Shown: positions 9,101 through 28,556 of the stretch, in pieces
Numbering within the stretch: the first letter of the stretch is position 1
Layout of the letters: the number at the start of each line of letters is the position of its first letter
Source of the DNA: a virus
Taxonomy: Duplodnaviria; Heunggongvirae; Uroviricota; Caudoviricetes
Strand: one strand, 5' to 3'
IMG/VR virus record: IMGVR_UViG_2654587570_000013
Location: 1 to 35,061 of that record
Length of the DNA: 35,061 bases
Notes under the pieces: model-generated
Told to the model about the DNA's origin: nothing
The model's database searches: none
Seen by the model: the letters and a program-made list of their open reading frames with translations, nothing else
Program-made: the position numbers and the translations under genes

Positions 9101-9925
9101 GTTTGAATGCAAATCCATCTGGCGTACTTGTTTACGTACTTTCAGGAATGAATCAACGTTGATGTTTTCAATTGGTACGGATAAGCCATATTTTTCATTT
9201 GTTAGGTAGTGGAAAATCTGGTCCACGCCGTTAGTGCTTGCCTCAATAGCATTGGTTTCAAGGTTACGGATTTTTAAGCCCATAACATCGACCGCTACCT
9301 GGCTATTTGGTTGAAGGATATCAACACCAGCAGCCAAAGATTTGTCATCACGACGTAAAACAATACACATGGTCGCAATGCCGTTACCCTGATACCGATC
9401 ATCCCAATCAGCGCCCAAATGATGTTTAGCAAGATCTAATGCAGTGTTAGGATTTTTACCCGTGCGAAACTCGACTTCTAAAACTTTGCGGTATTCGTCT
9501 TTAATGTTTCCTTTATCGAGAATGCCATCACGAATTGTCATATTCTGGCTAATGAGAACGTTTTTATTATCGATGTGCAGTGCTTTAAAGTGATCGATCT
9601 CACCTTCGGCAATAGCAAAAATTTGTACCAGCTTGTTATTTTCACGCTGTGAAATTGCTTTGTAAACGCAGATTGCACCAGTTCGGGTAGTACCGAAAAG
9701 AACGGGTAAAACTGTCTTAGGATCGTTTGATGTTCCTAGTGTCACCGCATTATCTGGGCTTTGTACTTTCGGTGTTTTTGGTGCGCCTACAGTGGAAGCG
9801 ATCAAGGTCATTGCACCAGCAGCCATACCGATAGCGACTGCGGTCATAACAGAAAATGTTGCAGCAGCAGCCATCCCAGCAGACGCACCAGCAATAACCG
9901 CGCCTACTAATATTTCAAATCCCAT
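6179..9925 (-). CDS. central tail fibre / host specificity protein (lambda J-like) with I-like hydrophobic N-terminus
   Basis: 1248 aa; C-terminus (DDHPFDRQIVIPA ... IDMPAGHGAVT ... KKAATGISVS) closely resembles the lambda J receptor-binding end as I recall it; internal fibre-shaft repeats; N-terminal Gly/Ala-rich hydrophobic segment; start overlaps the upstream stop (TAATG). Confidence 0.85.
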   Translation of the reverse strand: MGFEILVGAVIAGASAGMAAAATFSVMTAVAIGMAAGAMTLIASTVGAPKTPKVQSPDNAVTLGTSNDPKTVLPVLFGTTRTGAICVYKAISQRENNKLVQIFAIAEGEIDHFKALHIDNKNVLISQNMTIRDGILDKGNIKDEYRKVLEVEFRTGKNPNTALDLAKHHLGADWDDRYQGNGIATMCIVLRRDDKSLAAGVDILQPNSQVAVDVMGLKIRNLETNAIEASTNGVDQIFHYLTNEKYGLSVPIENINVDSFLKVRKQVRQMDLHSNGACDPNASFKENLTSLMQTFGGVMFESFGRITLKLDAPDIVKHTFNEDNIMMGKVSLKTGGTNGYFNTINAMYQEPSIDYSEQMLRYPADAENDATIRQDGRIIAKDIEYRFVKSKAQIDKLASVERNKSRITQVISFMTTDAFTAEVWDVISVTYDELKLNNSLWRITAIDRSIDSGIAGMMTITATEYNSQVYTDLNYAANPDNRPTGLPDSMTVQKPTNFRIKATGETIHGKNVTLTWDVPEDFNRYGFQIDYKVSGSPNWIKLGQTSQQIFNINALAKDRSYDYRVCAFGIIARSEWVELVNQNPTVTYELPTPVIRIKNQGSSPGTFEGNDLIIEWENQQQLDVMINGEANKFSDLFEAYIIKVTNKAGKSIQYRTRDPESWTYTLDMNQFNGLSRELTVEVSVKGYNNSESAPARLVAINPQHKPMKGFSARGGFNTAFVSWADDVEHDYAGSIIQYATDNTFSDARAVTTNSVSHTSFDLADGDYYIRGAHYDIFGMDDAVWSEPYFMQMKSTISWDDQDKEALEDLIGLQDRLDETIADAIAQAGANADAKIDAMHKQITTETGQTVQASADTLKSLIATSEQASATKIDQVKAELKGDITKEVSASATTLKQAIATSEAASASKIDQVRVEMDGKIAGVNQEADVKIDALKGTINSKYNLAVNADGRVAGIHMSATNDPAEPTRIIFTADKIAVAPQDGSEVCPFGIEDNKVYLDNAMIRNAAIGTAQISDASITTAKIGTAQINGAHIQHAQIGTGHIIDGSIDNAKIGNYIQSYNWNGNDGWYIGKDGTCHFRHANIRGHLVADSGEMNNVTINSSCRILGMLDANQVRGDFVKVVGRSFPHRQPNWPDGAITVRVEDDHPFDRQIVIPAIHHNGSVRRGESSDHWDTCRLIVKKNGGVLYDRTATSGCMYSGVIDMPAGHGAVTMTFEVYCKGVNNYNPSAYISDLTVMVTKKAATGISVS

Positions 9926-10344
9926 TATTCACCCCCGAATCTATAAACTTGTTCATAGTCAATGTCTGAAACAGGAATGGTCATCCAGATACCATCTTCT
10001 TCAACGAGGCCATAACCGGAATAATGAGGAACTACGGAATAATATTTGCGGTTTCCTAATTTGTGGGCTGTGACCAGTAAGTCGCCGTCCTGTAAATCAT
10101 CAGTGACTAATTTGAAATGTTTCTTAATTGGTTGAAGGATATTTGTGTATCCGCTTAATTCTTTGCAGATTTTCAAGCCTTCTTCTTTAGTTGAATATTT
10201 TTTATAAAGAGAATTATATAGGTCAGTACCAGCGAGAATATCGATGATCTTACATGCAATTATATTGCAATCATTCTCGCCTTGAACGAACTCCTGACCT
10301 ATTAAAGAATTGATGTAATCGGTGATAAGCCTAGTTTTTAGCAT
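9925..10344 (-). CDS. tail tip assembly protein (lambda K-like, NlpC/P60-type Cys/His motif)
   Basis: Start placed at MLKTRL, which has a GGAGGT SD; the ORF track extends to 10500 and would overlap the upstream gene by 110 nt. ENDC...H...H pattern; sits between the L-like and J-like genes. Confidence 0.55.
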   Translation of the reverse strand: MLKTRLITDYINSLIGQEFVQGENDCNIIACKIIDILAGTDLYNSLYKKYSTKEEGLKICKELSGYTNILQPIKKHFKLVTDDLQDGDLLVTAHKLGNRKYYSVVPHYSGYGLVEEDGIWMTIPVSDIDYEQVYRFGGE

Positions 10345-10390
10345 GTTGAATACCTCCATGCAGTTATTTACTAGGCTTAGGGAGAAGGGA

Positions 10391-11044
10391 TTATTTCTTC
10401 GATGAATGCCACTTGCTTTCGCTATTCCAGCGACCCGTCCTTGAGAAGAATAGATCGTTCTCGTTTCCAACATAGGAACGGTGGATACCATCGGAAGCAT
10501 GACTACGAGCGTTTTTATCTAGAACTTCCCAGATACTATTAAGCTGAAATTCTGATTCGTTTTTACACTCTTCATCTTCATGTTCGATGTTAATACCGAT
10601 GGAATCGACTACCCCACGGAAAACAGGGTAAGTAGTTTCAACCTTGCCCGTGTTGGGGTTAAGGAAAACCATCTCGATTTTCACATCAGATTTATCGAAT
10701 TGCTTGTTACGAATCAGGGTAATGTATTCTTCGCGAACGTTAGAAACAGTTACGTTGATCCCGTTGTTGTTGATCTCCTTCTCTTCGGTATTCGATGAGA
10801 TTTGAAGAAAGTCACCCGTTGCAAGATACGTAAAACCGTTATAGTCCAAATCGAAGTACCCATCTGTAAGCCGTAGAACGTCTCCTGACGCGGTTATTAC
10901 TTCGATAATGTGAAACATCGATCCAGTGGAAAAAAGCTGCGGTAGAGTCAATCTAGACACATTCTGCCCTGTCTGGTCGTTGTAGACCTCGATGAAGTCC
11001 AGATTAGTGCATAGTTTGCTGAATGATTCCTGAATAGTTGCCAT
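10391..11044 (-). CDS. minor tail protein (lambda L-like position)
   Basis: 217 aa; position between the M-like and K-like genes; start overlaps the upstream stop (TAATG). Confidence 0.5.
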   Translation of the reverse strand: MATIQESFSKLCTNLDFIEVYNDQTGQNVSRLTLPQLFSTGSMFHIIEVITASGDVLRLTDGYFDLDYNGFTYLATGDFLQISSNTEEKEINNNGINVTVSNVREEYITLIRNKQFDKSDVKIEMVFLNPNTGKVETTYPVFRGVVDSIGINIEHEDEECKNESEFQLNSIWEVLDKNARSHASDGIHRSYVGNENDLFFSRTGRWNSESKWHSSKK

Positions 11045-11604
11045 TATACATTCTCCACTAATTCAAATTTCATCTTGCCGATCTGAGCGATCTTCCAATC
11101 GATGTTTTCAGTTTTGAGAACAAATTCACCTTCTACGTTCTGATACTTGATCACCTCACCCGCTAGGACGTTCTGACGCAAGTTAGGGAAGAGTTTCATT
11201 TCGCCACCTGATTTCACATCTTCGGTGATCGTGTAGATTTTCTTGTGGTTCTCAAACTGGATGATAGTTCCCGCTTTCAGTGTTCCGGTGAAGTTGGAGA
11301 TTCTCACCTTACGCCCACCGCGAGCAGTACCAGCAGCAGCCGTTACCATCTGGCGTACATCACCTGTGTATTTTGAAAAGTAAGACAGTGGCACATTGAA
11401 AGGACGACCAAAAAGGTGACGTGCTACAAATTCTTTTACTTCGTTAATATCCTGAGCCATGAAATTCGCGGTAAATTCTGCTTCGTAAAAATGGATGCCA
11501 GTAAAGCGACGCTGGAACTTACCGGATATAGATTGCGCCTTGAAGAAAGGCTGTTTTGATTTAAGAGTAAAATCTGTGATTTTAATATTCTTGGATTTGA
11601 ACAT
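11044..11604 (-). CDS. minor tail / distal tail protein (lambda M position)
   Basis: 186 aa, immediately downstream of the tape measure gene. Confidence 0.5.
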   Translation of the reverse strand: MFKSKNIKITDFTLKSKQPFFKAQSISGKFQRRFTGIHFYEAEFTANFMAQDINEVKEFVARHLFGRPFNVPLSYFSKYTGDVRQMVTAAAGTARGGRKVRISNFTGTLKAGTIIQFENHKKIYTITEDVKSGGEMKLFPNLRQNVLAGEVIKYQNVEGEFVLKTENIDWKIAQIGKMKFELVENV

Positions 11605-14095: not shown

Positions 14096-14482
14096 TTAAC
14101 CGCTTCTGAGTTTCTCAAGCAAAGATGGATCAAACATGTTCAGCATTGTCGCTTTACGTTCTTCTTCTTTCTTGCGTACAAGTTCTTCCTGTTCTTCTTT
14201 AGTTTTAAAGAGTTTTTCTTCTCTAATTAATTGGAATTGGCTAGGCTTGAGTTTCTTTGCAGTTTCACGAGTCATTCCTTGCGACGTCATATACATGGAA
14301 TACTGCAACATCGCATTCTGCATATCATGAAACGCGGGGCTTTGTGGTTCTAAGTAGGTGTCGAAAATGTATAATTTCCAAAATAGAGTGATTGGCATAT
14401 TATCCATTTCATCTTTACTAAGCCCCGATCTCATCATTTGCCGGAAATAGAAATTCAGAAGCGGGTTTACTTTACCTCGTTT
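14096..14482 (-). CDS. tail assembly chaperone extension (lambda T-like; candidate -1 frameshift product with upstream gene)
   Basis: Reading frame is open from 14482 to 14096; it overlaps the 3' end of the G-like ORF in the -1 frame and has no well-placed independent start. Confidence 0.4.
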   Translation of the reverse strand, partial: KRGKVNPLLNFYFRQMMRSGLSKDEMDNMPITLFWKLYIFDTYLEPQSPAFHDMQNAMLQYSMYMTSQGMTRETAKKLKPSQFQLIREEKLFKTKEEQEELVRKKEEERKATMLNMFDPSLLEKLRSG

Positions 14483-14775
14483 TCAATTACCGCCGGATCT
14501 TGCATCAATGAGGCTTGAGCAACCAAACCGATTAATTCACTGCGGACGTTAGTATACAGTGCCTTAACTTGTTCAATAGATTCAAATACTGGTTTACCGT
14601 CTTCATCTTCAATACAACGAAGAATCGAACGTTCGTCACGGTCTTCTTTATCAGTATTAAAAACATGTTCGTTAAATTCTTTTACTGACATAGGGCGAGC
14701 ATAGAAAGTGAATCCACCGATGGTCAGAGATTCGCGTTTCGGAGAGAGTGCGGCTAACATTTCGTTAATATTCAT
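14467..14775 (-). CDS. tail assembly chaperone (lambda G-like position)
   Basis: 102-aa acidic ORF between the tail tube gene and the tape measure gene. Confidence 0.5.
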   Translation of the reverse strand: MNINEMLAALSPKRESLTIGGFTFYARPMSVKEFNEHVFNTDKEDRDERSILRCIEDEDGKPVFESIEQVKALYTNVRSELIGLVAQASLMQDPAVIENEVK

Positions 14776-14830
14776 TCTTGTTTCCTCTTAAGTTAATTAG
14801 ATATGTTTATTTAGAATTGGAAACAAAAAA

Positions 14831-14848
14831 GCCACCCCGAAGGATGGC
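14831..14848 (-). terminator. hairpin terminator/attenuator after the tail tube gene
   Basis: On the minus strand GCCAUCC-UUCG-GGGUGGC (UUCG tetraloop) followed by a T-run. Confidence 0.45.
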
Positions 14849-14857
14849 TAGATAATA

Positions 14858-15328
14858 TTAGACTTTCTGGAAAACAGCTTGTTTGACCGGAGCACCATCT
14901 ACTACAAAGGTGAAGGTACGGCCTACTACAGCATCCTCACCACCAGTCATGGTAGTTTTAGACAGGAAGCCGTTATAAGCGATATGTACACCAGATTTTT
15001 TCGTAGCATCGATGTAGTAAGCAATTTTAAGCTGTACGCGCTTACCGTCTTCGGTTGCTTTAATCAGTTTTTCGTGTACTTCGTTACCCGGCATGTAGTT
15101 GATCGAAAGTTCGATATCCGGTACAGACATACGACCAACCAGCTTACGGTTATACGGACCACCGAAGTTAGGAACATCGATAGTAGAACGTTCTACACCA
15201 GTTTCCGGGAAAGCCGCACATTCTGGAATTTCCAGATAGCTTTCACTGTCAAGATCGGTGTTAGTTACTTCTTCATGCAGAAACAGACCAACGAGGCCAC
15301 CAGAAAAAATATCAAATTTAGTAGTCAT
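14858..15328 (-). CDS. major tail tube protein (lambda V N-domain-like)
   Basis: 156 aa; INYMPGNEVHEKLIKATEDGKRVQLKIAY resembles the conserved lambda V segment as recalled (WMPGE...ALLAWFNEGD...YKIRF); very strong optimal-codon bias typical of an abundant structural protein; terminator hairpin downstream. Confidence 0.6.
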   Translation of the reverse strand: MTTKFDIFSGGLVGLFLHEEVTNTDLDSESYLEIPECAAFPETGVERSTIDVPNFGGPYNRKLVGRMSVPDIELSINYMPGNEVHEKLIKATEDGKRVQLKIAYYIDATKKSGVHIAYNGFLSKTTMTGGEDAVVGRTFTFVVDGAPVKQAVFQKV

Positions 15329-15382
15329 TATTCTTTTCCTTCTATTTTAAACAATAGGGCACATACCCGTAATTCTATTTAT

Positions 15383-15685
15383 TTAGCGGTTGCTCAAACG
15401 TCTATAACGAAGATGAGCGATCCCCCTATTTGTGCTAACGGTAATTACCGCCCCTTGCGGTGCAATACAAGAATGAATCTGTCCCCAATCATGACCCTTA
15501 TGGCTTCCAGAAACACACAAACCATGAATAAGCAATTCAGAGTCACCACCGCCACCACCGGAAGAATGAGCACAGAATGAAATAGTCCCGAAAGCGTCGG
15601 CTGTCCAACCGTTAGGAATATCAAACCATCCCTGATTTGCTTTACCCGCCCTATTCCCCAAAGCGCCATCTACCCAAAATGCCAT
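15383..15685 (-). CDS. small Gly/Trp/His-rich protein, paralogue 1 of 3 (unknown function)
   Basis: 100 aa; shares WFDIPNGW, a Gly-rich segment, D-SEL--GL and a C-terminal aromatic-basic tail with the two adjacent ORFs. Confidence 0.55.
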   Translation of the reverse strand: MAFWVDGALGNRAGKANQGWFDIPNGWTADAFGTISFCAHSSGGGGGDSELLIHGLCVSGSHKGHDWGQIHSCIAPQGAVITVSTNRGIAHLRYRRLSNR

Positions 15686-15990
15686 TAGTGCATTCTCCTG
15701 AATTTAAAATAATGCAAGCTACCTTTACCCAATGTAAAGCTAACGGTAGCACCAGCGCCAACTAAAGAACTAGCGCCCCAACTCCCGGCATCAGCCGCAT
15801 GATGACCCGATTCAATCAATCCATTTACGACCAATTCAGAATCAAGATCACCAGCACCGTTAATGGCTTCCATATGAGCAAAAACAATTCCGCATGAATC
15901 AGTAACCCAGCCGTTGGGGATATCAAAATATCCACCATTAGCCCAAATACTAATAGCGTTTGACATTCTTTGATTTATCCATCCAGCCAT
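15685..15990 (-). CDS. small Gly/Trp/His-rich protein, paralogue 2 of 3
   Basis: 101 aa; YFDIPNGW motif; its stop overlaps the start of paralogue 1 (TAATG). Confidence 0.55.
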   Translation of the reverse strand: MAGWINQRMSNAISIWANGGYFDIPNGWVTDSCGIVFAHMEAINGAGDLDSELVVNGLIESGHHAADAGSWGASSLVGAGATVSFTLGKGSLHYFKFRRMH

Positions 15991-15992
15991 AA

Positions 15993-16289
15993 TTAAAACT
16001 CCATGAATTTAAAATATTCAACACCACCTTCACCCCCTAAACCAAAGGAGACGGTGCAGCCAGCAGGAACAAACGAATTTATAGTAGATCCCCAATTGGT
16101 CCCACCACGACGACGAGCAACGGTCAAACCATCTACGTTAATATGTGCATCAGACCACCCACCACCAGCATTATGACGCATTACAGCGACACCAGCACGA
16201 GCAGTACCATAGCCGTTAGGAATATCAAATACATGCCATTTTAAAGCATCGATTTTAGTATTAATTTCGCTACTTACCCAATATCCCAT
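15993..16289 (-). CDS. small Gly/Trp/His-rich protein, paralogue 3 of 3
   Basis: 98 aa; VFDIPNGY motif; 2-nt gap to paralogue 2. Confidence 0.55.
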   Translation of the reverse strand: MGYWVSSEINTKIDALKWHVFDIPNGYGTARAGVAVMRHNAGGGWSDAHINVDGLTVARRRGGTNWGSTINSFVPAGCTVSFGLGGEGGVEYFKFMEF

Positions 16290-16327
16290 ATAAGAATCCT
16301 TAGCGGAGATTTCTCCCCGCTTTCCAA

Positions 16328-19300
16328 TTACCCTAATTTAGCTTCAATTGCAGCAAGACGTTCACGAAGAAGTTTATTTTCTTCGCTCATTTCTTGGACC
16401 GCTTTAATTAAAAGCGCGTTCACTGCGGAGTTTGAAATTGTTAAAATTTCTTCTGGGTTATCAAAACCACCAATTTTTGCGGTTTTAACAGCTTCCGGTA
16501 ATACCTCTTGTAAATCCTGTGCGATAATACCAATCTCATGACCTATAACTTCTCGGTCATTAAGAGATTTAACTTTATCGTAGGTTTTAACTTTGAGTTT
16601 ATTTACCTTATCCACCGCATTTTCTTCGTAATCTTCAACATTAATTTTCAGACGACGATCGGAACGAATATAAACATCGTTAAAGTTACCATTACCAGGA
16701 CAGTAAAAAGTACCATCATGATGGAACTCGAATACAGCTTGAGGGTGACCAGCCGCTGGCGATGCCTCCGCAGATCCAACACGAATAATTGCTTGCCCCC
16801 AATTTTGAGGAACACGACGCATACCAAAATCGACGGCAGTTGTATACCCTTGATTGGTGATTAAACTTCTTCCTTTGATAATCGGATAATAACAGTCCGG
16901 TGAAACATAGCCATGATCGACAAATATTGGCGCTTCTAAGCCCCATTGATCACCCCAACCTCCAGATTGGCTAGCAGTCCAACGTTCACCATGAACATAG
17001 AATCGAACGTTATTGACATGAGTCATTTCGACACCTTTTGGACTTAGCGCGATATCCCCCGCGTTTGTAATATTGATAGCAGCATTAGTAGCATAGCTAT
17101 AGAACGCTAATCCATTATCAGCACCACCTTTACCGATATACCAGTTGTTATTATCAGCACAAGTACCCAACAAATATATCGACGAATCGCCCGTTTCGGC
17201 ATTCATGATGATTGCGTCAGAACCACGATTAACTTTAAGTTTCCCGAAGAAGGTGTTTTTAATGGTATTATCACCCAATCGTTCAAATTCGGCTAAAAAT
17301 CCTTTTGAGTCACGAAGGCTTAAAACGTTATTTCGACCTGTATTGCTTGCCCCCCAATGGACGAGTTCCATATAGTCCATAGATTGACGAGAACCAGCTT
17401 TAAAGAAAAGATTGTCCTCAAGACGAGTGCTACCATCAATTCCAAGATGCAAACAGCGTGCGGTCGCTGTGCCACCTAGATCTAATCCACCACCAGCAAA
17501 ATCATAACTAAATGGTCTACGGCTATTCCACCCACCGAAAGAATCACCGTGATCTGTGGAAAGAATATGGAAGCTAGTTCCATCATTACGGAACATCAAA
17601 CCATAATTACCACCTTTAACAGCCAAACGAGCATTTTCAGATAATGCAACTTCGCTATTCATTACAATTTTCTGGCCTTTACCACCAGTAATATGTAATT
17701 CACCATCTTCAATCAGGTTTATCGAGTTTTGACCGTTATCATTCCACCAAATAAAATCTTTGGTTGTTCCATCACCGAAGCCAAACCAGCCATTACGAAC
17801 ATCTTGTCCAGTGCGATAATCCATGAAATTAAAATGGCTTGATTCGTTTGGTCCTCGACGAATATCAATACCAGAATTTCCACCAACACCACCATCCAAT
17901 GTTAATCTCTTGACATGTAACCCGGTTGTTGCTGTCAGCAATAATTCCTGATTTGTATCTTCGTATCCAGTAGCAAGACGATATGCGTTATCATCAACTG
18001 TCTCATGCCAGATAGTGGCAGGAGCAGAACTACGGAAGCGACGCAACATTTTCTTAGCATTTGTTTGCTGTTCGTTCAAATGCTCAATGTCATATTGGCC
18101 TTGATGGTTTCCAGCAAAATTTAACGTTCCACGGTTGCTAAAGTTATTGAACGATGAAATGTTAAGAGCATCAAAAATTTCATCTGCAACAGGTTTTTCA
18201 CCGCCCAGGTATTCAGGAGTATCCAACAGGTTTAAAGAAACACCACCGGAAGAAACTTGATATTCTGCTAAAACAAATCCTGTATGTGCACCATAGTAAG
18301 CGTAAAGATCATAATTGTCGCCATCGGTTGGAATAGCGCAAAAATGTTGTTCATAATGCCAAATAGTATAATACGCATTGAATACAACACCTTTCGGGCT
18401 ATTGTTGCCGCATCGAATCACCAATTCGATAATATTGGCTTGTCCATTCATCCCGACGTTATAACCGTTACCACCAACTAAGCGGATCTTAGCACTACGA
18501 CCGTGTTGCTGTGGCATTGTCAAAGTGCCTAGTTTAAACCAACCACCCTCGATCCCAAAATTAAGCGTCTTCTGGAACAGTCGGTCAATTTCTGCTTTCG
18601 AATATGCGCCAATTTCGGCAGGAGTAGGTTTATCACCTTCATGATACATGCGGTGAGAATATGCCAAATGACCCAATTCATCATAGCCGTATGTTCTTAC
18701 CGTATGAACCGGATTAGACCCATAAGTGAACTCAAAGCCACGAGCATGATTAACACCAGATGGATGCGGAACATGCAAGATCATTGCAATATGACCCGCC
18801 AGGTCATTCATGCGGAATGCACCAAAGTAATCAAGATTACGCGCATTTGGATCATCAAAATAGTTTGCGGTCTTAGACAGCAAATAACCATCAGTATAAG
18901 TGTTTACGTGTTTTTTGATGTACTTGCCATCAGCAGATCCATCGGCTGCATCAATACGGCTTTCTAAGCGTGCCAATTCAGAATCAGTGTAAGACTTGTT
19001 ATTGTCAACTTTGCTATGAATTGCTGTATTTTTGGCTTCAACATCACGGGTTAATGCTGCGACGTTATCCGCTGCCTCTTGCTTATTGGCTGCAATCACA
19101 CCAGTAAGGTTATTGTAGGTGTCAGTTAACTGATTTTCCGCATAGACTTTATTTGCTGCGATAGTGCGGTCAGTTTCTGTCTTAATCAGATCAACTTTGT
19201 CATTGATTGCTTTGTCATTACTTGCGATTGTCGCGTCGGTACGGGATTTAATATCATCAACTTTTTTATTGATGCGGGTATCCAGTTCCTGGGTTGCTAC

Positions 19301-19738
19301 AGCAGCCGCATTTTTATTAGCGTTGATGGTATCCGACAATTCAGCTTTAACACCAGCAAGGTCGGAAGCAGCTTTATTTTTATTGGCCTCGATTGTCGCG
19401 TCGGTTTCGCGTTTAATTACATCAACTTTATTGTTAATTTCTGCGTGATTTGCTGCGATGGTTGCATCAGTAGTTTGTTTAATTTCATCTACTTTAGCGT
19501 GAATATTGCGGTCATTTACTGCAATTGTGCTATCCAGTTCTTGTTTGTTAGCATCAACTTTAGATTCTAGTGCCGCGTGAGTTTCAGGAGAAACAGAGAT
19601 TTGAACTACTTCATGATCTCGGTCTTTGGTAAAAATAACATGGTCTTTAAGGTTGATTGCTACCTCACCGACCTGTAATTGTTCCGGCGTTGGTTTTTTG
19701 CCAGAAACATTTGTTCGTTTAAATTGGATCGACTGCAT
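16328..19738 (-). CDS. tail fibre/tailspike with C-terminal intramolecular chaperone (peptidase S74-type) domain
   Basis: 1136 aa; N-terminal array of roughly 22-aa shaft repeats (KVDxIKxxTDATIxAN); C-terminal ~110 aa has the S-DxRxK autoproteolysis signature (YIRS/DRRLK) and a terminal coiled coil, as in T5 L-shaped fibre and K1F endosialidase chaperone domains. Confidence 0.85.
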   Translation of the reverse strand: MQSIQFKRTNVSGKKPTPEQLQVGEVAINLKDHVIFTKDRDHEVVQISVSPETHAALESKVDANKQELDSTIAVNDRNIHAKVDEIKQTTDATIAANHAEINNKVDVIKRETDATIEANKNKAASDLAGVKAELSDTINANKNAAAVATQELDTRINKKVDDIKSRTDATIASNDKAINDKVDLIKTETDRTIAANKVYAENQLTDTYNNLTGVIAANKQEAADNVAALTRDVEAKNTAIHSKVDNNKSYTDSELARLESRIDAADGSADGKYIKKHVNTYTDGYLLSKTANYFDDPNARNLDYFGAFRMNDLAGHIAMILHVPHPSGVNHARGFEFTYGSNPVHTVRTYGYDELGHLAYSHRMYHEGDKPTPAEIGAYSKAEIDRLFQKTLNFGIEGGWFKLGTLTMPQQHGRSAKIRLVGGNGYNVGMNGQANIIELVIRCGNNSPKGVVFNAYYTIWHYEQHFCAIPTDGDNYDLYAYYGAHTGFVLAEYQVSSGGVSLNLLDTPEYLGGEKPVADEIFDALNISSFNNFSNRGTLNFAGNHQGQYDIEHLNEQQTNAKKMLRRFRSSAPATIWHETVDDNAYRLATGYEDTNQELLLTATTGLHVKRLTLDGGVGGNSGIDIRRGPNESSHFNFMDYRTGQDVRNGWFGFGDGTTKDFIWWNDNGQNSINLIEDGELHITGGKGQKIVMNSEVALSENARLAVKGGNYGLMFRNDGTSFHILSTDHGDSFGGWNSRRPFSYDFAGGGLDLGGTATARCLHLGIDGSTRLEDNLFFKAGSRQSMDYMELVHWGASNTGRNNVLSLRDSKGFLAEFERLGDNTIKNTFFGKLKVNRGSDAIIMNAETGDSSIYLLGTCADNNNWYIGKGGADNGLAFYSYATNAAINITNAGDIALSPKGVEMTHVNNVRFYVHGERWTASQSGGWGDQWGLEAPIFVDHGYVSPDCYYPIIKGRSLITNQGYTTAVDFGMRRVPQNWGQAIIRVGSAEASPAAGHPQAVFEFHHDGTFYCPGNGNFNDVYIRSDRRLKINVEDYEENAVDKVNKLKVKTYDKVKSLNDREVIGHEIGIIAQDLQEVLPEAVKTAKIGGFDNPEEILTISNSAVNALLIKAVQEMSEENKLLRERLAAIEAKLG

Positions 19739-19767
19739 CGAATCACCTCACTATAAAACAGGAATAA

Positions 19768-19785
19768 GGGAGGCGTTAACCTCCC
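19768..19785 (-). terminator. hairpin (attenuator) between V-like gene and fibre gene
   Basis: GGGAGG-cgttaa-CCTCCC stem-loop; flanking sequence only moderately T-rich. Confidence 0.3.
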
Positions 19786-19811
19786 GCGTCATGTTTTATT
19801 TAGAGAAGCAA

Positions 19812-20645
19812 TCAGTATTCCCCGAAGTCGATCCGGTCATGGATAGAAACGGCTTCAATCTCGGCTGGTGTCGGTTTTTCTTCTGTGGAATACACTTTCA
19901 CCCATCCAGAATTACCGTCTTTCTGGACTGTGCGAACTCGTAAACGTGGTGCGCCGGAAGCGGTGCAAGTTAATTGCCATCCACCATCTTCATTAGGTTG
20001 AACGTGAATTAGTGAAGTATCAGCACTAAATGGATTAGATACGCTCGATCCCTGATAAGTTACGAAACGGTTTCCGGCTAATGCTTCGCTATCAATCGGA
20101 CCTATGAATGGGCTAACGCCTGAACCTACGCCATAATCCCCTTGTCGCAGAATTTTTCCCTCGGTCGCGATACCCCTTGCAAGAATCCCGCCATCTGGTT
20201 CAAGTTTAAATTCCAGTGTTACAGCTTTGTTATCTGCGCCACGGGTTTTATGTGATGTGACGTAAGCATCGAATATACAAAAGTACCCTGTGTTAGCAGC
20301 ACTATAGCCAGAGTTCACAACATAGAACATACGGAAGCGTAAAGGTGTTTTATCCTCTACCGCTTTCATCAACATTGCTTGATGTTCGTCATCCAGAACA
20401 CGGTTTAACGTGAGTGTTGTCGGTTCCAGTTTACGATAACCAGCAAGTTTCCCCGTAGCGTCCTGGTCATACTCTTCTAACGTCTGGATCTCTGTGGATT
20501 CGGTTATCGTCGGAAATGCTGCGATGTTCTCGATAGGACTAAAGCTAGGATCGAAAAAGTCCGGCTGGTTATCCACCATAGTAGACACGGAGACTTCAAC
20601 ATGCGACCCCGTGAAAATGTCTAAGTTATCTTGTGTAATATTCAT
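19812..20645 (-). CDS. tail tube-fold protein with C-terminal extra domain (lambda V-like major tail protein or tail terminator)
   Basis: 277 aa; TLTLNRVLDDEHQAMLMKAVEDKTPLRFRMF resembles the same V-like segment; C-terminal ~100 aa beta-rich domain carrying a KPTPAEI motif also present in the fibre. Confidence 0.5.
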   Translation of the reverse strand: MNITQDNLDIFTGSHVEVSVSTMVDNQPDFFDPSFSPIENIAAFPTITESTEIQTLEEYDQDATGKLAGYRKLEPTTLTLNRVLDDEHQAMLMKAVEDKTPLRFRMFYVVNSGYSAANTGYFCIFDAYVTSHKTRGADNKAVTLEFKLEPDGGILARGIATEGKILRQGDYGVGSGVSPFIGPIDSEALAGNRFVTYQGSSVSNPFSADTSLIHVQPNEDGGWQLTCTASGAPRLRVRTVQKDGNSGWVKVYSTEEKPTPAEIEAVSIHDRIDFGEY

Positions 20646-20654
20646 TATTACCCC

Positions 20655-21077
20655 TTAAAAACGCGCTAGATAAGAAAATTTAAGGCTAAGTGTCCCAACG
20701 ATACCCCCATCACTAGAATCATCGTCATAATCGGTATTAGAGGCTACTGGAGTGATATCTGAAATAGAGAAGCCCAAATCTTTAAAACGTGGATTATCCG
20801 GCTGAATCTGGATTATCTGGCAAATACCCTCATGAATTTTGGTTTCATGATTCTGAGAATACAACTGCATTTCGATAACGCATTCAGCTTGCATTGCATT
20901 ACCACCACGGACCCTATTGTAAGTCTCATTCATTCCGGTAATCCAACAAACCACGTCATCACTAAAGCCTTGCTGAGTTTGTTCTACGTTTAAAGCCAGA
21001 CCTAAATCTTGTTCGATAATATCCTGCAAGGCGCGTTTGATTTTCAGTCTAGGCATATTATTAACGGTAGCGAGCAT
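20655..21077 (-). CDS. head-tail joining / tail completion protein (by position)
   Basis: Start placed at MLATVNN, which has a GGGGG SD; the ORF track extends to 21125. Located between the capsid and tail genes. Confidence 0.45.
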   Translation of the reverse strand: MLATVNNMPRLKIKRALQDIIEQDLGLALNVEQTQQGFSDDVVCWITGMNETYNRVRGGNAMQAECVIEMQLYSQNHETKIHEGICQIIQIQPDNPRFKDLGFSISDITPVASNTDYDDDSSDGGIVGTLSLKFSYLARF

Positions 21078-21351
21078 GTGTACCCCCTGCACGAGCAATA
21101 AAGCAATCAGAAGTATTATCACCATTGCGCTTAACGTATTGAACTTTGAAACGCTGATTTTCTACAGTGACAACATCACCCTGATTTAAGTCTCCCTCAC
21201 GACAAAATAGAAATTCTGTCTCTGTCATTACCCCTTGTTCGTCGGTAGTAGTAATTTCATGATAAGCACGAATTGATTTACCACCTTCCACCGAAAATAC
21301 AGGAGCACTTCGGAACATTCTTGATAATTGTGATTCTGATAATTTGAACAT
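21061..21351 (-). CDS. head-tail connector protein (by position)
   Basis: 96-aa ORF immediately downstream of the capsid gene and its terminator. Confidence 0.45.
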   Translation of the reverse strand: MFKLSESQLSRMFRSAPVFSVEGGKSIRAYHEITTTDEQGVMTETEFLFCREGDLNQGDVVTVENQRFKVQYVKRNGDNTSDCFIARAGGTHARYR

Positions 21352-21386
21352 AGTTACCCCCTTTATGGAGTATTTACATACAAAAA

Positions 21387-21408
21387 AGCCCCACCGTTAG
21401 GCAGGGCT
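21387..21408 (-). terminator. weak hairpin plus T-run after the capsid gene
   Basis: AGCCC ... GGGCT stem; on the minus strand followed by TTTTTTG. Confidence 0.3.
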
Positions 21409-21545
21409 AATTATTATTTTGCTTTAGTCTTACGTTCTTTTTTAACTGTGGCTTTCGCCGTAACCGTCTGAGATTCTTCTTCCTGAGATGGAATCAGATT
21501 TTCTTCCCCCAAATCGGGGGAAGGTTCAGATGGTTCTACGTTATT

Positions 21546-23558
21546 TCATTCAGCGGAGATGTGAAGAACTTTCAGAGCTTCCGGCTGAACTACGGTGAAG
21601 TCCAGGTCTACCCAGATACGCGGAACGATAGCAGACTGTGCGCGGTAAGTGGTGTCGTCCATATCCAGTTCCAGACCACCCCATTCACCGATCATGATAC
21701 CGGAGAAGTCACCCAGAACGATGTGGTCTGCCGGAATAACGCCAGAAGTAACTACATCGTAACCAGCCAGTTTGCCGTTTTCGATGATATAACCGGAAAC
21801 GCCGTTATCTTTCAGGGTAGATTCCAGTTCAGCAGCAGTTGCACCGCTCATTGCAAACTTGATGGACTGTGCCGGAACGCCAGCGTCGGTCAGTGCTGCA
21901 ATTTCTTTCAGGAAGTCTTTGTAAGAGAAAGCAGCTTTCTTAGTAACGCGACCACCGTCTACCAGTTGCTTAACCAAACCTTTCGGACCGCGAGTATTGT
22001 CTTTGTCAGACAGAATCAGTTGTTCCAGTTTGATGCGAACAGCTTTGTTAATATGATCAGTGATCAGGGTAGCAATATTCGGAACAGTTTTCAGAGACTG
22101 ACGGCTGATCGGGTTGCCACCAGCAAAAGTTTTCGGAGCCATTTTCACGTTTTCAAAGGTAGCCTTCGACTCGGGGGCACTTCCATTTTCGTCTACAAAA
22201 CCAAAGGCATCAACGCTGGAAGCAGTCATTTTCGGTACAGCGATCGGGCTATTCAGACCAGACAGGACGGTCACGCCCAGACGACCCAGACACGAAGCAG
22301 GAAGCAGCATTTCGATGTATGATTCAGTCAGCAGTTTTTCGTCAGTTACAGCGGTCAGAGTAGTTTTGGTGTTACCATCAGCAGCAGCACGCAGAGCAGC
22401 AGCCGGAACGAATACAGAGCCACCGCGAGCAGCACGACCACGCTGCATTGCAGCACCAGCAGCCATAGCGGAATATTCAGCTTCGTTAGCACCCAGAGCA
22501 GCACCATCTACCAGAGAGCGAATTACGTTGTTCAGGTCAAAAGTTTTTTCCATTTTAGAGTCCTTAATTTGTTGTTCGTTGTTACGTTGAGCAGTAGCGA
22601 TTTTATTTAGTGCCTTAGTGCGGAATGCTTCCGGCGTAATTTCTTTATTTGCCAATGCGCGTTTAAATTCTTCATCGTCTTCGTTAATATTTAGCTCGCG
22701 AGCGATCTCGCGAATTTCTAATTCGTCTTCTTCGGAACGTTCAGCCACTTCTTCGATTTTTTCTTCTTCAACCGGAGCGGCTTCACGTTCTTCTTTTACT
22801 TCTTCTGCTTCCCGAACAGTTGAACTATCATCATCAACACTTTCAGGATGTTCAGCGTCTTTTCCGTCTTCGAGATTTTCATTTTCTTTATTCTCTTCAA
22901 CTTGGCGCTCTTGAGTTTCTTCAACTTCCGGTTCTTTATTTTCTTCTACCGGAGTTTCTTCAACCTGAGCGGCTTCTTGTTCTTCTTTGATTTCTTCGAT
23001 TTGTTCTTTAGTCATATCGCGTTTAGCCTCCAAATTAACTGTGATAGTATTTAGAGAGCGATTTAAACCGACCGAATCATCAGCAGGAACGGTGACAAAT
23101 GAGAGTTCATAGGGCGCCCACTTAGTAACAATCAATTGCCCTTTGGCGTAATCGATGTGATATTCTTTAATGTCATAGCCGACAGAAATTTTTTCCATCG
23201 TACCTTCAATGACTTTATTGCGAATATCATTAGCCAAAGTGCCATGCTTAGAGAATTTAACCAGAGCACGACCTACGTTATCCGCATCGATTCGAGCGTC
23301 GCAGACTACACCTAAATGATTATCGAAATTATGATTGAACAGCAACGGAGCGTTATTATTCAGACGAGACAGATCAACCGCTTCCGGTGTATGTACCAGA
23401 ATTTCATCTAGTACCACCATCTCTTGATTTTGCTCATCCCAGAATTGGCGCTGATACGGCTGTTCACTGGAGAAAGCAATTTCAAATTCGTATTGATCGT
23501 TATGCCCTTCGTTAATAACTCCACCGTAACCGTTAAGATCGCGGCGAAATTTAAGCAT
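21546..23558 (-). CDS. prohead protease - acidic scaffold-like linker - HK97-fold major capsid protein (single ORF)
   Basis: 670 aa; N-terminal ~170 aa protease-like, central ~150 aa extremely acidic/coiled-coil, C-terminal ~330 aa Ala/Gly-rich capsid-like region; strong codon bias; internal ATG at 22553 has an AAGGA SD. Confidence 0.7.
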   Translation of the reverse strand: MLKFRRDLNGYGGVINEGHNDQYEFEIAFSSEQPYQRQFWDEQNQEMVVLDEILVHTPEAVDLSRLNNNAPLLFNHNFDNHLGVVCDARIDADNVGRALVKFSKHGTLANDIRNKVIEGTMEKISVGYDIKEYHIDYAKGQLIVTKWAPYELSFVTVPADDSVGLNRSLNTITVNLEAKRDMTKEQIEEIKEEQEAAQVEETPVEENKEPEVEETQERQVEENKENENLEDGKDAEHPESVDDDSSTVREAEEVKEEREAAPVEEEKIEEVAERSEEDELEIREIARELNINEDDEEFKRALANKEITPEAFRTKALNKIATAQRNNEQQIKDSKMEKTFDLNNVIRSLVDGAALGANEAEYSAMAAGAAMQRGRAARGGSVFVPAAALRAAADGNTKTTLTAVTDEKLLTESYIEMLLPASCLGRLGVTVLSGLNSPIAVPKMTASSVDAFGFVDENGSAPESKATFENVKMAPKTFAGGNPISRQSLKTVPNIATLITDHINKAVRIKLEQLILSDKDNTRGPKGLVKQLVDGGRVTKKAAFSYKDFLKEIAALTDAGVPAQSIKFAMSGATAAELESTLKDNGVSGYIIENGKLAGYDVVTSGVIPADHIVLGDFSGIMIGEWGGLELDMDDTTYRAQSAIVPRIWVDLDFTVVQPEALKVLHISAE

Positions 23559-23604
23559 TTAATCACCTTTAATTAATTGGGGGCATTGCGCCCCCCGTTG
23601 GTTA

Positions 23605-25116
23605 TTAGGGATCGGCTGGGGAATTTTTTTCTTCACCCTCGCCATCAACGATAATATTTAGTGCGCTCTTTTCGGCTTGAATCTCTGAGAATACTTTTTC
23701 AGGATCATCACCACGTTCAAGAATAACGGCAGTACGTGATTTAAGTCCTTTATCAATTAAAGCAATATCAGCGTTTACGTCTTTAATAACATCGACAGAC
23801 TCGAAACGCGGACGAATAATAGTTGTATTATCGATAATATGTGGAATTGCAGTAATACGAATCGGAACAATACCACGCGCGGAATAATGGCGTAGATACG
23901 CTTCGAAAATTGGCAATACCACTGTTTCAATCAATTTGTTTTGAAGTGCTTTAACGCGGTTACGTTGAAGTAGTTCACCAAAACGTGCGGCGCTGTAATT
24001 TATTTGGCTAGTATCGCCAGTTAAGCCCTGATTGAACACGCCAAGACCCATCGCTATACTCTTGAACATTCCATCATTGAAGCTGTTAAAGTCATCACCA
24101 CTTTGCGATGATTGAATTGACTTGATTGTTGCCCCTTCCGGCAATTCCTGAATAGTACCAGGCGCGAAATCGTGAATAACTTCCGGCGCTTGATATTGGT
24201 CTTCATCTTCACCAGTATCAAAATCGTCACCAGAATCTTTCGGACGCTCGATGAACGCCATGCTACAACTTGAAATTCGTTTATGTACCAGTACAGCTTC
24301 GCGGAATGCGTCTTGATGTGCGATATCCTTAATCACTGGCAGGAAGTCAGTCACACCACGCAGAGATTCAGCCGCAAGTGGTTGATAATAATGGCATACT
24401 TGCGAAGCATCTACGCGATAGTTATCACCTGTGTAGGTCTGAGTCAGTAGGTTGATTTTACGAAACCAGTATGCAACAGGGCGCATTGTGTGTAGGTCAT
24501 ACTCCACACCTTGATATATCGCACGCTCTTTGCTTACTTCACGGTTGAGCGACCAGTCGCACTTATCAGCAGACAGGATAGAAACATTTAACTCATTGTT
24601 TTCTTTAGTTAAAACGATGAAACACTCACCACCCATAACGCGCTCACGTTCAGCCATTACCAGCAGTTCACGGAAGTTAAAGCGACCGTTACGAGAGAAG
24701 CGTTTAGCATTCTGCGCCCACTTCCAGAAAGCATTCTCAATCTGCTTATTCAGTGCGCTATCAAGTTTGCCATTTGATTTAACGATTGATGGCTTCGGAT
24801 CTAGGCCAGTACCTACCACCATATCGGTTATGTATTGCGTGTAGCGACTGCCTACGGAAGTGTTTAAGGCCAGAGTACGACCCTGATCATAAAGGCGCTT
24901 ACCGTTCGATTTGAGAGCCTTATTGAAGGTTCCGGTGATAGTATCTTGTTGAAGCTGTCCATCAATGCGATCACCAACCAGTCCTAAACTCCGAGTCGCC
25001 AAAGATCTCTGGTATTTTTCTACTTGTTTGTCGATGAAAATTTTTGGTTGTTGCTGGCGGTGATTAGTTTTAACTGGAGTTTCTACCGCCTTTTTGCGTC
25101 GAAAAAGATTAAACAT
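23605..25116 (-). CDS. portal protein (lambda gpB family)
   Basis: 503 aa; KSIAMGLGVFNQGLTGDTSQINYSAARFG resembles the conserved lambda portal segment as recalled (IAAGLGVSYEQLSRNYAQMSYSTARAS); located after the terminase gene. Confidence 0.8.
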   Translation of the reverse strand: MFNLFRRKKAVETPVKTNHRQQQPKIFIDKQVEKYQRSLATRSLGLVGDRIDGQLQQDTITGTFNKALKSNGKRLYDQGRTLALNTSVGSRYTQYITDMVVGTGLDPKPSIVKSNGKLDSALNKQIENAFWKWAQNAKRFSRNGRFNFRELLVMAERERVMGGECFIVLTKENNELNVSILSADKCDWSLNREVSKERAIYQGVEYDLHTMRPVAYWFRKINLLTQTYTGDNYRVDASQVCHYYQPLAAESLRGVTDFLPVIKDIAHQDAFREAVLVHKRISSCSMAFIERPKDSGDDFDTGEDEDQYQAPEVIHDFAPGTIQELPEGATIKSIQSSQSGDDFNSFNDGMFKSIAMGLGVFNQGLTGDTSQINYSAARFGELLQRNRVKALQNKLIETVVLPIFEAYLRHYSARGIVPIRITAIPHIIDNTTIIRPRFESVDVIKDVNADIALIDKGLKSRTAVILERGDDPEKVFSEIQAEKSALNIIVDGEGEEKNSPADP

Positions 25117-25126
25117 GATTTACCCC

Positions 25127-25621
25127 TTATCGCGTAAGACGTAATTTGATATTTTTAATCGGGCTAATTCCCTGTTTACGTCGTTCGGCTTGAATTAATT
25201 TTGATAACTGACGTTCATAATCGACTTTTAGAGTCTGGAGAACAGCCAATGACTCATAGGCGAAAGTATTCCCTTTCACTGTCATTGCTGATAATGCGGC
25301 TTCGTCCCCAGATAAACGGGCGAAAATAACTTGCTCGATTAAGGCGATAGTTTCCCGCAGATATTCTTTTTTGGATTGTTTGGCGAATACTGGTAAAACA
25401 GTTAATTCCTGCATTGATACCAGTTCTTCTTCCAAAGTGGTTACGATGGTATATTTACCTTCGGCAAAATCTAAGGTTTTGATCTCATGATTAGCCGGAG
25501 TATCATCAACCTGATAAATGATACCTTTACTATTTCCTACCTGAATTGTTACACCCTCTTCATTCGCCAGCGTGATTTTTTCGCCTTTACGAATTACTAA
25601 GGGAATTAGTTCTAAACTCAT
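25127..25621 (-). CDS. hypothetical protein between terminase and portal genes
   Basis: 164-aa ORF in operon context; no motif recognised. Confidence 0.45.
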   Translation of the reverse strand: MSLELIPLVIRKGEKITLANEEGVTIQVGNSKGIIYQVDDTPANHEIKTLDFAEGKYTIVTTLEEELVSMQELTVLPVFAKQSKKEYLRETIALIEQVIFARLSGDEAALSAMTVKGNTFAYESLAVLQTLKVDYERQLSKLIQAERRKQGISPIKNIKLRLTR

Positions 25622-25693
25622 AATTACCCCTTATTTAATTGTTATTGGATTAACAATATTTAGGAGTAAGCCGCCCCGAAGGACGGCGAGTTA

Positions 25694-27601
25694 TTAGAAC
25701 GATGTTACCCAACTACGGCCTCTATTTGGAGGTCTGACGATGTTTTGACGTTGCGGTCGTGTGATTGGCTTAGTTTCTTCGATTTGCTCGTTAGATTGCG
25801 ATTTAGGAGCTTTTACGGGTTCTTCGACAACGCGGTTTAAGCTGTCTTTCATTGCAATGAGTTTATCCCATGACATTTTTGAAAGGACGTAGCGAGAAGC
25901 CGCATAGCTATAAACCAGACAGTCGAGAGCCTCGTTTCGGGTACTACCTGGATTTTTCACCCAACGCACGCCAGTAGTAGTACGCTTGATGGATTCACTC
26001 AAAAGCTGATCGAGATAATCATCAGGAACGGTTTCTGATATCTCTAAACCAATATGAGGATTGTCTTTCAGGTTTCTAACCAGCATTTCACGAACAGCAG
26101 ATTTACCAACGTTAACACCCAGCATAAGCAATTCATGACCACCTGTGCGGGTAGGTTTAACCGGAATCACTGGAGCATTACCAGATGAACTACCTTTGAT
26201 CGCGTGTAGGTTCTTCCACTTACCGCAAATACGGTATCCGGCTTGAGTGAATCGACCGTTCGATGTATCAAGGAAGCTGGCGAGCATAGGAACACGATCA
26301 CCCGATACAGTAGTAAATTTGGTTTTATGGAAGTTGATTAATCTATCCCATACAGGGGATTCATATCGTTCACAGTTATGATCGTAAAAGCTGCGGTGAT
26401 CCAGAATGTAAACCTTATCTTTCGCTACACCTAAGATGGTAGTTTCTGCGCGATCTAATTGCTGGTCAGTACCCGCACATAAGAAAATCACGTCATCAGG
26501 GATATTCTCGATAGAAACATCTGTTTTGAGTTGTTCCAGTTCATTTGCTTCTACTGCCGTGTCCTGATCGTCGTATACCTTGCCTAACACGGTGTTAAAA
26601 AAGGATTGTAAATCAAAGGATTGCCACGCATGACTAAAATCAACCACACAAGCGCGAATCGTGCTGAAAGGTGAATACAGACGACTGATCCAGAATCCTG
26701 CTACCTCACTTTCACGGGTTGCTCTCCACTCTCCTTGTGCTACTGCCCTGATTCGTTCCCCTTCTGTCCATGCGTTCTTACAGTGGGGGCAAATATAACG
26801 AGCGGTATCAGGATCGGGTAAGTTCTTACCATCAATGTTACGCCATTCAAATTGAACGTTTTCCCACTCGATCACCTGGTGTCTACCGCAATGAGGACAC
26901 GGAACAAAAAACATACGCATATCGCTTGATAACCATTGCTGGTTAATGCTTCCCAGCTTACTGGTCGGGGTACTGGATACGACTAATCGACCTTCATCGC
27001 CAAAGGTAGTTAAACGGTTAGCAGCCAGTGCCACCGGATCACCTTCTTCTGAGGCTGTGGCAGCATCAATTTCGTCAAGTAATCCAACCTTTGCGGTCTT
27101 ACCACGTAGGGTTGATGGGCTGGTAAGCGATACCATGTACAGGAAGTGATTCGTTTTTAACTGGAGTTGGTTGTTGTTGTTAACCGCGTTGCGATCATTC
27201 TTGTCTGTAACCACGTCTTTCAATGCATCACATGCTTCGATAGACGGTCGGATCTTACCCGCGAGATATTGAGACATTTCTTTAGCGGTTGATTGTCCGA
27301 TAATCATATTGCATGGATCGTTAGCCATCTGGTTAAACAGGATACCGTTTAGGATGGTAGTTTTTCCGATCTGCGCACTGGTCATCAGTACATACTTTTT
27401 CTTATTCTCAAGGAAAGGAGCATCAATCATGCCTTTCTGGAATGACAGCAATTTAACTTTATCCCCCGCTTGAGGACCATCTACCAGCACCATATTCGCT
27501 TCGCACCATTCAGACGGAAGGAGCTTAGGCGGTGGAGTGATATATTTTGCGGCATTTTTAAGAATCTTTTTTAATTTTGCCTTATTAGAAATCAGTTTCA
27601 T
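25694..27601 (-). CDS. terminase large subunit (lambda gpA family)
   Basis: 635 aa; Walker A-like SAQIGKTT; VPCPHCG zinc motif; C-terminal [14 protein letters not shown] resembles lambda gpA RNEALDCFVYALAA as recalled; GAGGGT SD; first gene of the leftward operon. Confidence 0.9.
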
Positions 27602-27688
27602 GTAATTACCCTCATTACGAAATATGAAGGTATTTATTAAATTATTGATATTTTGATAAATACGGGTATTAAGATTTAAGGAGGGTGT

Positions 27689-28285
27689 ATGCTAATTAAT
27701 CAGCAAGAAAGAGATGAATTAGCCTTGTCTTGTACCGATCATGAATATCGTTTACCCGTTAAGCATAAGCATTTAAAAACCGATTACACAACATCTGGGT
27801 TTAGCCGTGAGGAAGCGAAAGAGATTTTAATAGAATTTTACCGTGATAATGGCTATAGAGACGTTCATAACTTCTTTAAGAAGCATCGCACATCACAGAC
27901 AGAGTTTCAGCGAGTCCGTGAGTGGTTTGATTTTGATATCAAGCGTTATTATCGCATTGATGACGGTCCTATCTATCGGTTGCAGTGGAAGCCGATCAGG
28001 GAAGTGTTGAAACAGAAGAGATTGAATCACGCAATTACACGCTATCGTAACGAGGCTTTCAAGAAAGGCTATGGTGATACAAGGGAACTATTCGTTGAAC
28101 TCGCTAACGTGAAGTACAGCCACTATTACAACGATCCTAAAGGGTTCTTTGAAGTGCTTCGCAAGGTTGATATAAGTCGGGGTACATATTATTCACGGTT
28201 GAAGAAGTACGGGATTAAGGCAGAGTTCTTTATGTCGGTTGACGATGGAGAACTTTTTCCGATAAAATGTAAGTCCTCTAAATAA
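27689..28285 (+). CDS. protein with two copies of a small HTH-like module (putative DNA-binding regulator)
   Basis: 198 aa; AAGGAGGG SD; two internal segments ([17 protein letters not shown]...FFKK and [17 protein letters not shown]) match the module found in the two small downstream proteins. Confidence 0.5.
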
Positions 28286-28548: not shown

Positions 28549-28556
28549 TTCTCTTT

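Follow-up and report, generated by a model that had tools for sequence, protein, structure and literature searches.

The window analysed here is the whole of IMG/VR record IMGVR_UViG_2654587570_000013, a stretch of 35,061 nucleotides (nt) that constitutes a complete temperate siphophage of ~36 kb, a lambda-like Escherichia coli prophage. Among its tail genes is one for a protein of 277 amino acids (aa), which is followed by a gene for a side tail fibre of 1136 aa, three small open reading frames (ORFs) and the gene for a 156-aa tube protein. It is probable that the 277-aa protein is a fibre anchor, in which a duplicated tail tube domain (residues 1-162) is joined to a connector resembling gp36 of phage T4 (residues 163-277), the whole making a specialised ring that holds the side fibres. 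We infer ring formation, docking contact, stoichiometry and ring position as follows. The tube domain would form its ring in register with those of the 156-aa major tube protein; the connector would point outward, trimerise and hold the fibre, and its ...DFGEY tail would dock the gp37-type N-terminal domain of the fibre in the manner of the T4 gp36-gp37 joint. A hexameric ring feeding trimeric fibres would yield two fibres per ring. The distal fibre, its S74 chaperone and the three small genes would be a cassette exchanged with T-even phages, so that a lambda-like temperate siphophage would have T-even-type side fibres beside a J-like central fibre.

A tail tube protein and its paralogue

All ORFs listed for this region in a first-pass annotation of the DNA were recovered at the same coordinates, on the - strand. 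That annotation described two tube-like genes bracketing the fibre gene and three paralogues, and both end proteins indeed matched PHROG 158 ('major tail protein'). The match spans residues 11-154 in the 277-aa protein (E = 4.6e-10) and residues 20-150 in the 156-aa protein (E = 3.2e-20). The latter, which carries the RefSeq name 'phage tail tube protein', also gave sub-threshold matches to Pfam Phage_TTP_12 and Phage_TTP_11 (23.3 bits for TTP_12 against a cutoff of 26.1), and 20 of 25 of its homologues matched PF16460. No Pfam or NCBIfam match was found for the 277-aa protein, and NCBIfam likewise returned nothing for the 156-aa protein, the terminator or the small paralogues.

The homology of the two tube proteins was detected by profiles only. 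Direct BLASTP of the 277-aa against the 156-aa protein returned nothing, and hhalign of the two families (alignments of 31 and 25 homologues, respectively) gave a probability of 98.2% (E = 2.8e-14) over 155 columns at 21% identity, spanning the entire 156-aa protein and residues 2-162 of the 277-aa protein. Neither family profile found a meaningful match among PDB sequences, so a comparison of folds was needed. In the AlphaFold2 model of the 277-aa protein, the predicted local distance difference test (pLDDT) lies at about 80-92 for most of residues 12-162 and falls in two loops near 51-70 and 111-120, and the modelled domain has the beta-sandwich and helix of a tube fold. Taken with the profile alignment, this upholds the earlier proposal of a duplicated tube-fold protein. 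The 156-aa protein is predicted to share the fold, on the basis of its family matches and its homology to the modelled paralogue. In such comparisons PDB 9occ_B misleads by its name, 'Putative neck whiskers protein gp24', since in the paper on this entry gp24 is the tail tube protein of Sf11.

The 156-aa protein appears to be the major tube subunit, being a plain domain of ~150 aa whose gene lies directly upstream of those for the G/T chaperones and the tape measure. The 277-aa protein has a predicted tube fold, yet it should not be filed as a major tube protein, because the fibre cassette sets its gene apart from the chaperones and because it carries the connector. In some metagenomic relatives (L004 at 14729-15484; L045-L050) the major tube protein is 251-254 aa long, with a C-terminal extension of ~100 aa (251 aa in L004). 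These loci have outward-facing additions on the major tube protein as well as on its paralogue.

The earlier suggestion that one of the two copies was perhaps a terminator or collar held in part. The 140-aa protein encoded upstream of the 277-aa gene has a terminator fold in its model, so the terminator role is already filled; moreover, the model of the 277-aa protein lacks the gpU/SPP1 gp17-type alpha/beta fold, and this protein was rejected as the tail terminator. The part that stands is a fibre-linked anchor or collar, for which the fusions and the gp36-type docking motif described below argue.

The fibre junction, the cassette and their conservation

The invariant columns of the connector are G163...D273, G275. 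It is weakly similar to residues 300-380 of the fibre (E = 9e-4), and a module at ~195-270 of the 277-aa protein is repeated 5-8 times in ordinary long fibre proteins. The 277-aa protein ends in ...DRIDFGEY and T4 gp36 in ...VQDFGYY; on the other side of the junction, fibre residues 1-47 are 45% identical to residues 4-50 of T4 gp37 (E = 2e-10). This pairing of a DFGYY-type tail with a gp37 N-terminal domain was found in every split locus, in which tube-headed protein and fibre have separate genes. In all of these the tube-headed protein ends in [IV]D[FL]G.[FYE] and the next gene starts with M..I(Q/K)FKR...G.KPT....GE..I.L.D..I (MQSIQFKRTNVSGKKPTPEQLQVGEVAINLKDHVIFTKD in the window). In Proteus an extra 198-aa middle segment has both the N-terminal motif and an ...MDFGTF end, and is followed by a 675-aa fibre starting with the same N-terminal motif. 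A family member of 395 aa (P0136, profile E = 1.8e-72) consists of a tube domain and then a gp36 homologue, which is 32% identical to residues 6-165 of T4 gp36 over 166 columns (E = 1e-15). As judged from these motifs, the junction of the 277-aa protein and the fibre would be the T4 distal-fibre joint.

The fibre begins with the gp37-type docking domain (1-47), followed by a helical-looking, repetitive part (~50-270), a distal shaft resembling that of T-even gp37 (~288-1025) and an S74 intramolecular chaperone (1026-1085; window 16484-16663). It matches Pfam Gp34_trimer (1.2e-15) and Peptidase_S74 (6.6e-15) as well as PHROG 1699 (E = 1.7e-129); a tandem-repeat search in the gene found nothing of note. 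From ~15367 to 18875 the DNA of the window is 82-94% identical to T-even phages (Krischvirus G37-3, KFS-EC, MIZ4). This stretch encodes the fibre from residue ~288 to the C-terminus together with the three small genes, and its T-even counterpart is gp37 plus the genes at the gp38 position, just before the holin. In the split E. coli form, the T4 gp36/gp37 joint would act as a plug-and-socket between siphophage and T-even receptor-binding modules, which would explain this level of DNA identity.

The three small ORFs are paralogues of one another, with 25-38% identity (38% between the second and first, 25% between the third and first), a common FDIPNG(W/Y) motif and a Gly-rich centre. They had no Pfam, PHROG or NCBIfam match. 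In Krischvirus G37-3 a hypothetical protein encoded downstream of gp37 is 99% identical in amino acids to the first of them. Among phage records, the small paralogues were found in only 5 (4 distinct T-even-like phages, some of them Krischvirus), at 76-99% amino-acid identity. Within the prophage lineage they occur only with fibres ending in ...RERLAAIEAKLG, and every such locus has the trio (for example L003 at 5017-5923), with the middle ORF truncated to 73 aa in L037. They may be tip adhesins or assembly factors. Other relatives carry other cassettes, either one S74 fibre, 1142-1207 aa long, or a fibre accompanied by a genuine gp38 adhesin. The adhesin is of T2 type and follows the fibre in distant relatives (L045 at 14547-15356; L046-L050), matching PF05268 (E = 3.8e-49) and Gp38_N (1.8e-17). 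Because distant relatives carry a genuine gp38, temperate siphophages too would use the T-even gp37 plus gp38 adhesin module. From these comparisons of genes, the presumed socket is constant across the lineage and the presumed plug is exchanged.

The first-pass annotation had allowed that its gene order might be a local rearrangement artefact. We therefore compared the order in homologous loci from IMG/VR (44), Proteus mirabilis, metagenomes and Pseudocitrobacter and in three distant fused forms, about 45 of them complete, scanning each with three profiles, one for the terminator and one each for the families of the 277-aa and 156-aa proteins. Every complete locus has a tube-headed protein, a cassette of 3-5 kb and then a tube protein, and wherever the profile or gene calls detect a terminator it lies immediately upstream of the tube-headed gene. 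Hosts of these loci are E. coli, Salmonella-type, Proteus, Leclercia-type and Pseudocitrobacter, besides metagenomes. An order kept in about 45 complete loci rules out a local rearrangement.

The proposed tie between the second tube copy and the fibre was likewise borne out. In the split loci a gp36-type tail faces a gp37-type N-terminus, and in most relatives the two are fused. The single locus recovered by a scan of genome contigs, from Pseudocitrobacter (L008), encodes one protein of 1018 aa in which the tube domain and the same Gly-rich segment are combined with a long shaft and an S74 chaperone; the tube gene comes immediately after it. Fusion proteins of this kind, with a tube domain and a complete fibre that includes S74, fill the same slot in L008 and in P0181 (1349 aa), P0143 (1057 aa) and P0249 (1563 aa), and the three fused examples viewed in context had an identical slot and the same backbone.

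An exhaustive profile search of 1.84 billion representative proteins recovered 279 relatives of the 277-aa family. Among the best 150 of these, counted as representatives of clusters at 50% identity, a tube domain was present in 126 and was N-terminal in 125 of the 126. Tube-domain proteins longer than 600 aa numbered 96 of 126 (up to 1563 aa), and 10 of 126 had a DFG-type tail end. The nearest relatives outside the tube-headed architecture were 9 plain tube proteins of ~150 aa among the same 150, which is consistent with duplication of a tube gene. Members of the 277-aa family are frequent in E. coli and were also seen in Shigella, Salmonella, Providencia, Edwardsiella and Proteus. The named members among the relatives recovered by the profile search belong to Serratia, Kluyvera, Pantoea, Leclercia and Yersinia, and their annotations go no further than tail fibre or hypothetical protein.

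Position of the proposed ring and comparison with known tails

A ring at the head-proximal end, next to the terminator, is weakly favoured by the gene order, because the tube-headed gene invariably comes after the terminator gene and before the tube gene. The suggestion in the first-pass annotation of a fibre attached away from the tip would likewise follow from the gene order. Papers on T5 report, as an empirical rule, that the order of tail proteins follows that of their genes, and the gene position of p140 predicted its location (PMC10038345, PMC11784142). However, the same group showed that T5 p143 breaks this rule (PMC11784142). From residue counts and rules of thumb, the fibre is roughly estimated at ~85 nm and the tail, with its 809-aa tape measure, at ~120 nm. 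Since the fibre would be shorter than the tail, neck-anchored fibres would miss the tip plane, which neither proves nor excludes the proximal position. In its fullest form, a neck-anchored arrangement would have the paralogue ring directly under the terminator, its six chains merging into two trimeric T4-type long fibres, throughout the lineage; we put this forward tentatively, as possible and not as probable. If true, it would be a mode of attachment and a solution to 6-to-3 symmetry unseen in any solved phage, and its socket would take up T-even gp37/gp38 modules through simple recombination.

A distal position of the ring, like that of T5 p140, is nearly as likely. Under this alternative the ring would sit between Dit and the first major-tube ring and the fibres would emerge near the tip, a placement that would suit assembly logic and function. 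Against it, every locus has the gene between those for the terminator and the tube protein, far from the Dit and hub genes, whereas the T5 p140 gene is in the baseplate block; moreover, searches of the cassette with Pfam and PHROG found no p132-like collar gene. As an account of the whole arrangement we regard it as rather unlikely.

It is far less plausible that the 277-aa and 156-aa proteins co-polymerise throughout the tube, in the way of SPP1 gp17.1* and gp17.1, so that fibres or stubs would project at many positions. The two tube domains align over the 155 columns without large gaps and have N-terminal and core motifs in common, so mixed rings are conceivable, and C-terminally decorated tube proteins are common, including the relatives of the 156-aa protein with extensions of ~100 aa noted above (L004, 251 aa). 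However, 21% identity is a divergence far beyond that of usual co-assembling isoforms, the two genes have no frameshift relationship, and a tail with trimeric fibres of 1000-1500 aa on many of its tube subunits would be crowded and costly to build. That one of the two proteins is a terminator or another neck protein, or that the arrangement is a local rearrangement or a functionless, decaying duplicate, is the least credible reading and is already largely refuted by the results above.

Several points weigh against the 277-aa protein being a fibre anchor. Its similarity to T4 gp36 is not significant by BLASTP (best E = 0.11), the link being made via the family member P0136 and the terminal motif, and beyond residue 162 the connector half is modelled at a pLDDT of 32-59. 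The hairpin after its gene (19785-19768) has a T-poor tail. To our knowledge, all tube-fold domains make axial hexameric or pseudo-hexameric rings, and a hexameric ring is mismatched in symmetry to trimeric fibres. As p143 illustrates, gene order is a weak guide to position in the virion. The tube-headed lineage is known from sequences, and in a phage collection of 50,697 records a homologue occurs in one record only, DCP80, which is apparently chimeric. With one record in this collection, the lineage is practically unstudied; when two fused-type N-domains were compared with phages by tblastn, the result was nothing or only DCP80. This Escherichia phage (GenBank PQ671644.1; L001/L058) is classed as Gaprivervirus (T-even). 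Its first ~26 kb are from a siphophage structural module of the prophage lineage, and the remainder has T4-like genes, with rIIA twice in opposite orientation. The record is probably a chimeric assembly of two phages.

The closest known system to the proposed anchor is p140/p132/pb1 of T5. There p140 is a duplicate of the tube protein with 9% identity, and one ring bears the p132 collar and three pb1 fibres (PMC10038345). p140 and the 277-aa protein are alike in that each has diverged from a duplicated tube protein of its own phage and occurs alongside the major one. The systems differ in that p140 is a double tube domain that forms trimers whereas the 277-aa protein is a single domain, and in that its gene lies outside the baseplate block, between the terminator and tube genes. 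T5 also places a separate Ig-like dodecameric collar, p132, between the ring and the L-shaped fibre pb1, whereas in the prophage the tube domain itself has the connector or, in relatives, the whole fibre. The authors of the T5 work regarded p140/p132 as a landmark of T5-like phages only and held that anchoring must differ in other siphophages (PMC10038345).

The likeness to the T4 long fibre (gp36-gp37, gp38) lies in the fibre N-terminus, the DFGEY/DFGYY ends, the gp36 homologue of P0136, the distal-shaft DNA and the gp38 of relatives. However, in T4, which has a contractile tail, gp36 hangs from gp35/gp34 and the baseplate, whereas the gp36-like piece of the prophage would be grafted on a non-contractile tube domain, and the prophage has no equivalents of gp34 and gp35. 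The lambda gpV Ig-like domain, SPP1 gp17.1* and the extensions of lactococcal tube proteins also join a tube domain to an outward C-terminal module, thought to aid adsorption. Those decorations belong to the major tube protein or a frameshift isoform, occur all along the tail and are small monomeric domains; the prophage protein is encoded by a separate, highly diverged gene with a trimeric fibre connector or a complete fibre of 1000-1500 aa, which makes them more distant analogues than T5. The phage resembles Ur-lambda in being a temperate, lambda-like siphophage of E. coli that has accessory side fibres beside a J-type central fibre. In lambda the stf gene follows J and its fibre attaches at the tip complex; no tube-fold anchor is known to be involved.

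A literature search found no description of a fusion between a tube domain and a fibre. The fixation of side fibres in siphophages is known atomically for few phages, and a tube domain as the foot of the fibre would be a second solution, simpler than that of T5. With 126 tube-domain clusters (50% identity) among the best 150 relatives, the named ones from Enterobacterales prophages, it would not be rare. It would thus represent a widespread, previously undescribed structural solution that extends, and does not overturn, the lessons of T5 and T4, and could provide an existing template for giving phages or tailocin-like particles new targets. For annotation, a 'hypothetical protein' or 'tail fiber protein' encoded between the terminator and tube genes may start with a tube domain.

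Prophage setting and late-gene order

An equivalent element in E. coli UTAK-14 (NZ_CP168998, at 3.15-3.19 Mb) is 93.8% identical across the region, is integrated in ycdX and encodes a serine recombinase. Megablast of window positions 19700-35061 against phages gave no match. The late genes all lie on the - strand and are listed in Table 1 in order, terminase first.

Table 1. Late genes and terminator-like hairpins of the prophage, with window positions.
Feature	Position	Strand	Remarks
gpA-type large terminase	25694-27601	-	
164-aa gene	between large terminase and portal	-	
Portal, lambda-family	23605-25116	-	
Protease-capsid fusion	21546-23558	-	
gpFII-like head-tail joining protein, 96 aa	21061..21351	-	Pfam Phage_attach E 6.7e-05, under curated cutoff; NCBIfam tail_join_FII weak
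gpU-like tail terminator (predicted), 140 aa from ATG at 21077	20655..21077	-	mechanical ORF begins 21125
Tube domain (residues 1-162) of 277-aa protein, major tail tube paralogue	20160..20645	-	
Connector half (residues 163-277) of 277-aa protein	19812..20159	-	Gly-rich conserved segment, one fibre-shaft module and C-terminal docking tail
Weak terminator-like hairpin after 277-aa gene	19768..19785	-	7-bp stem GGGAGG..CCTCCC, then TTATTCCTGTTTT
Side tail fibre, 1136 aa	16328..19738	-	
Small paralogue 1, 98 aa	15993..16289	-	gp38 position
Small paralogue 2, 101 aa	15685..15990	-	
Small paralogue 3, 100 aa	15383..15685	-	
Major tail tube protein (predicted), 156 aa	14858..15328	-	
Intrinsic-terminator-like hairpin after 156-aa gene	14830..14849	-	8-bp stem AGCCATCC-TTCG-GGGTGGCT, then TTTTTTGTTT
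Tail assembly chaperones: G-like 14467-14775, T-like 14096-14437	14096..14775	-	Pfam Phage_TAC_13 1.9e-4 and Phage_tail_T 3.1e-4, both sub-threshold; PHROG 344 E 1.3e-07
Tape measure, 809 aa	after chaperones	-	
Dit-like, hub, DUF6950, then 1248-aa J-like protein	after tape measure	-	Dit-like protein 186 aa, 11044-11604

A hairpin had been reported after each tube-like gene, and both were found, one strong and one weaker. The strong one, at 14849-14830, has the T-run TTTTTTG after its stem and is a classical intrinsic terminator.

Relatives keep the gpFII-like gene in its place behind the capsid gene. For the terminator ORF there are two candidate starts, 21125 and 21077, the longer version gaining a hydrophobic leader. 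No gpZ-type tail completion gene was found between the gpFII-like gene and the terminator (20655-21351), where lambda, SPP1 and HK97 have one. The 277-aa protein was considered as a substitute and rejected, because completion proteins of the gpZ type are predicted to consist of two long helices and a small sheet (PMC11784142) and its modelled fold is that of a tube.

At the tail tip (6179-9925, 9925-11604) are parts of RcGTA/phiJL001 type, namely a Dit-like protein, a DUF2163-type hub N-domain and DUF6950, together with the J-like protein. The C-terminus of the last is the lambda J receptor-binding domain (PF12421, E = 1.6e-34), and the phage probably bears a J-type central receptor binder in addition to T-even-type side fibres. 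Several prophage copies in E. coli genomes (for example NZ_CP024134, NZ_CP062211, NZ_CP018840 and NZ_AP042682) have insertions in the interval from the terminator to the tube gene, in the form of IS421, IS3, ISVsa5 or a GIY-YIG nuclease gene.

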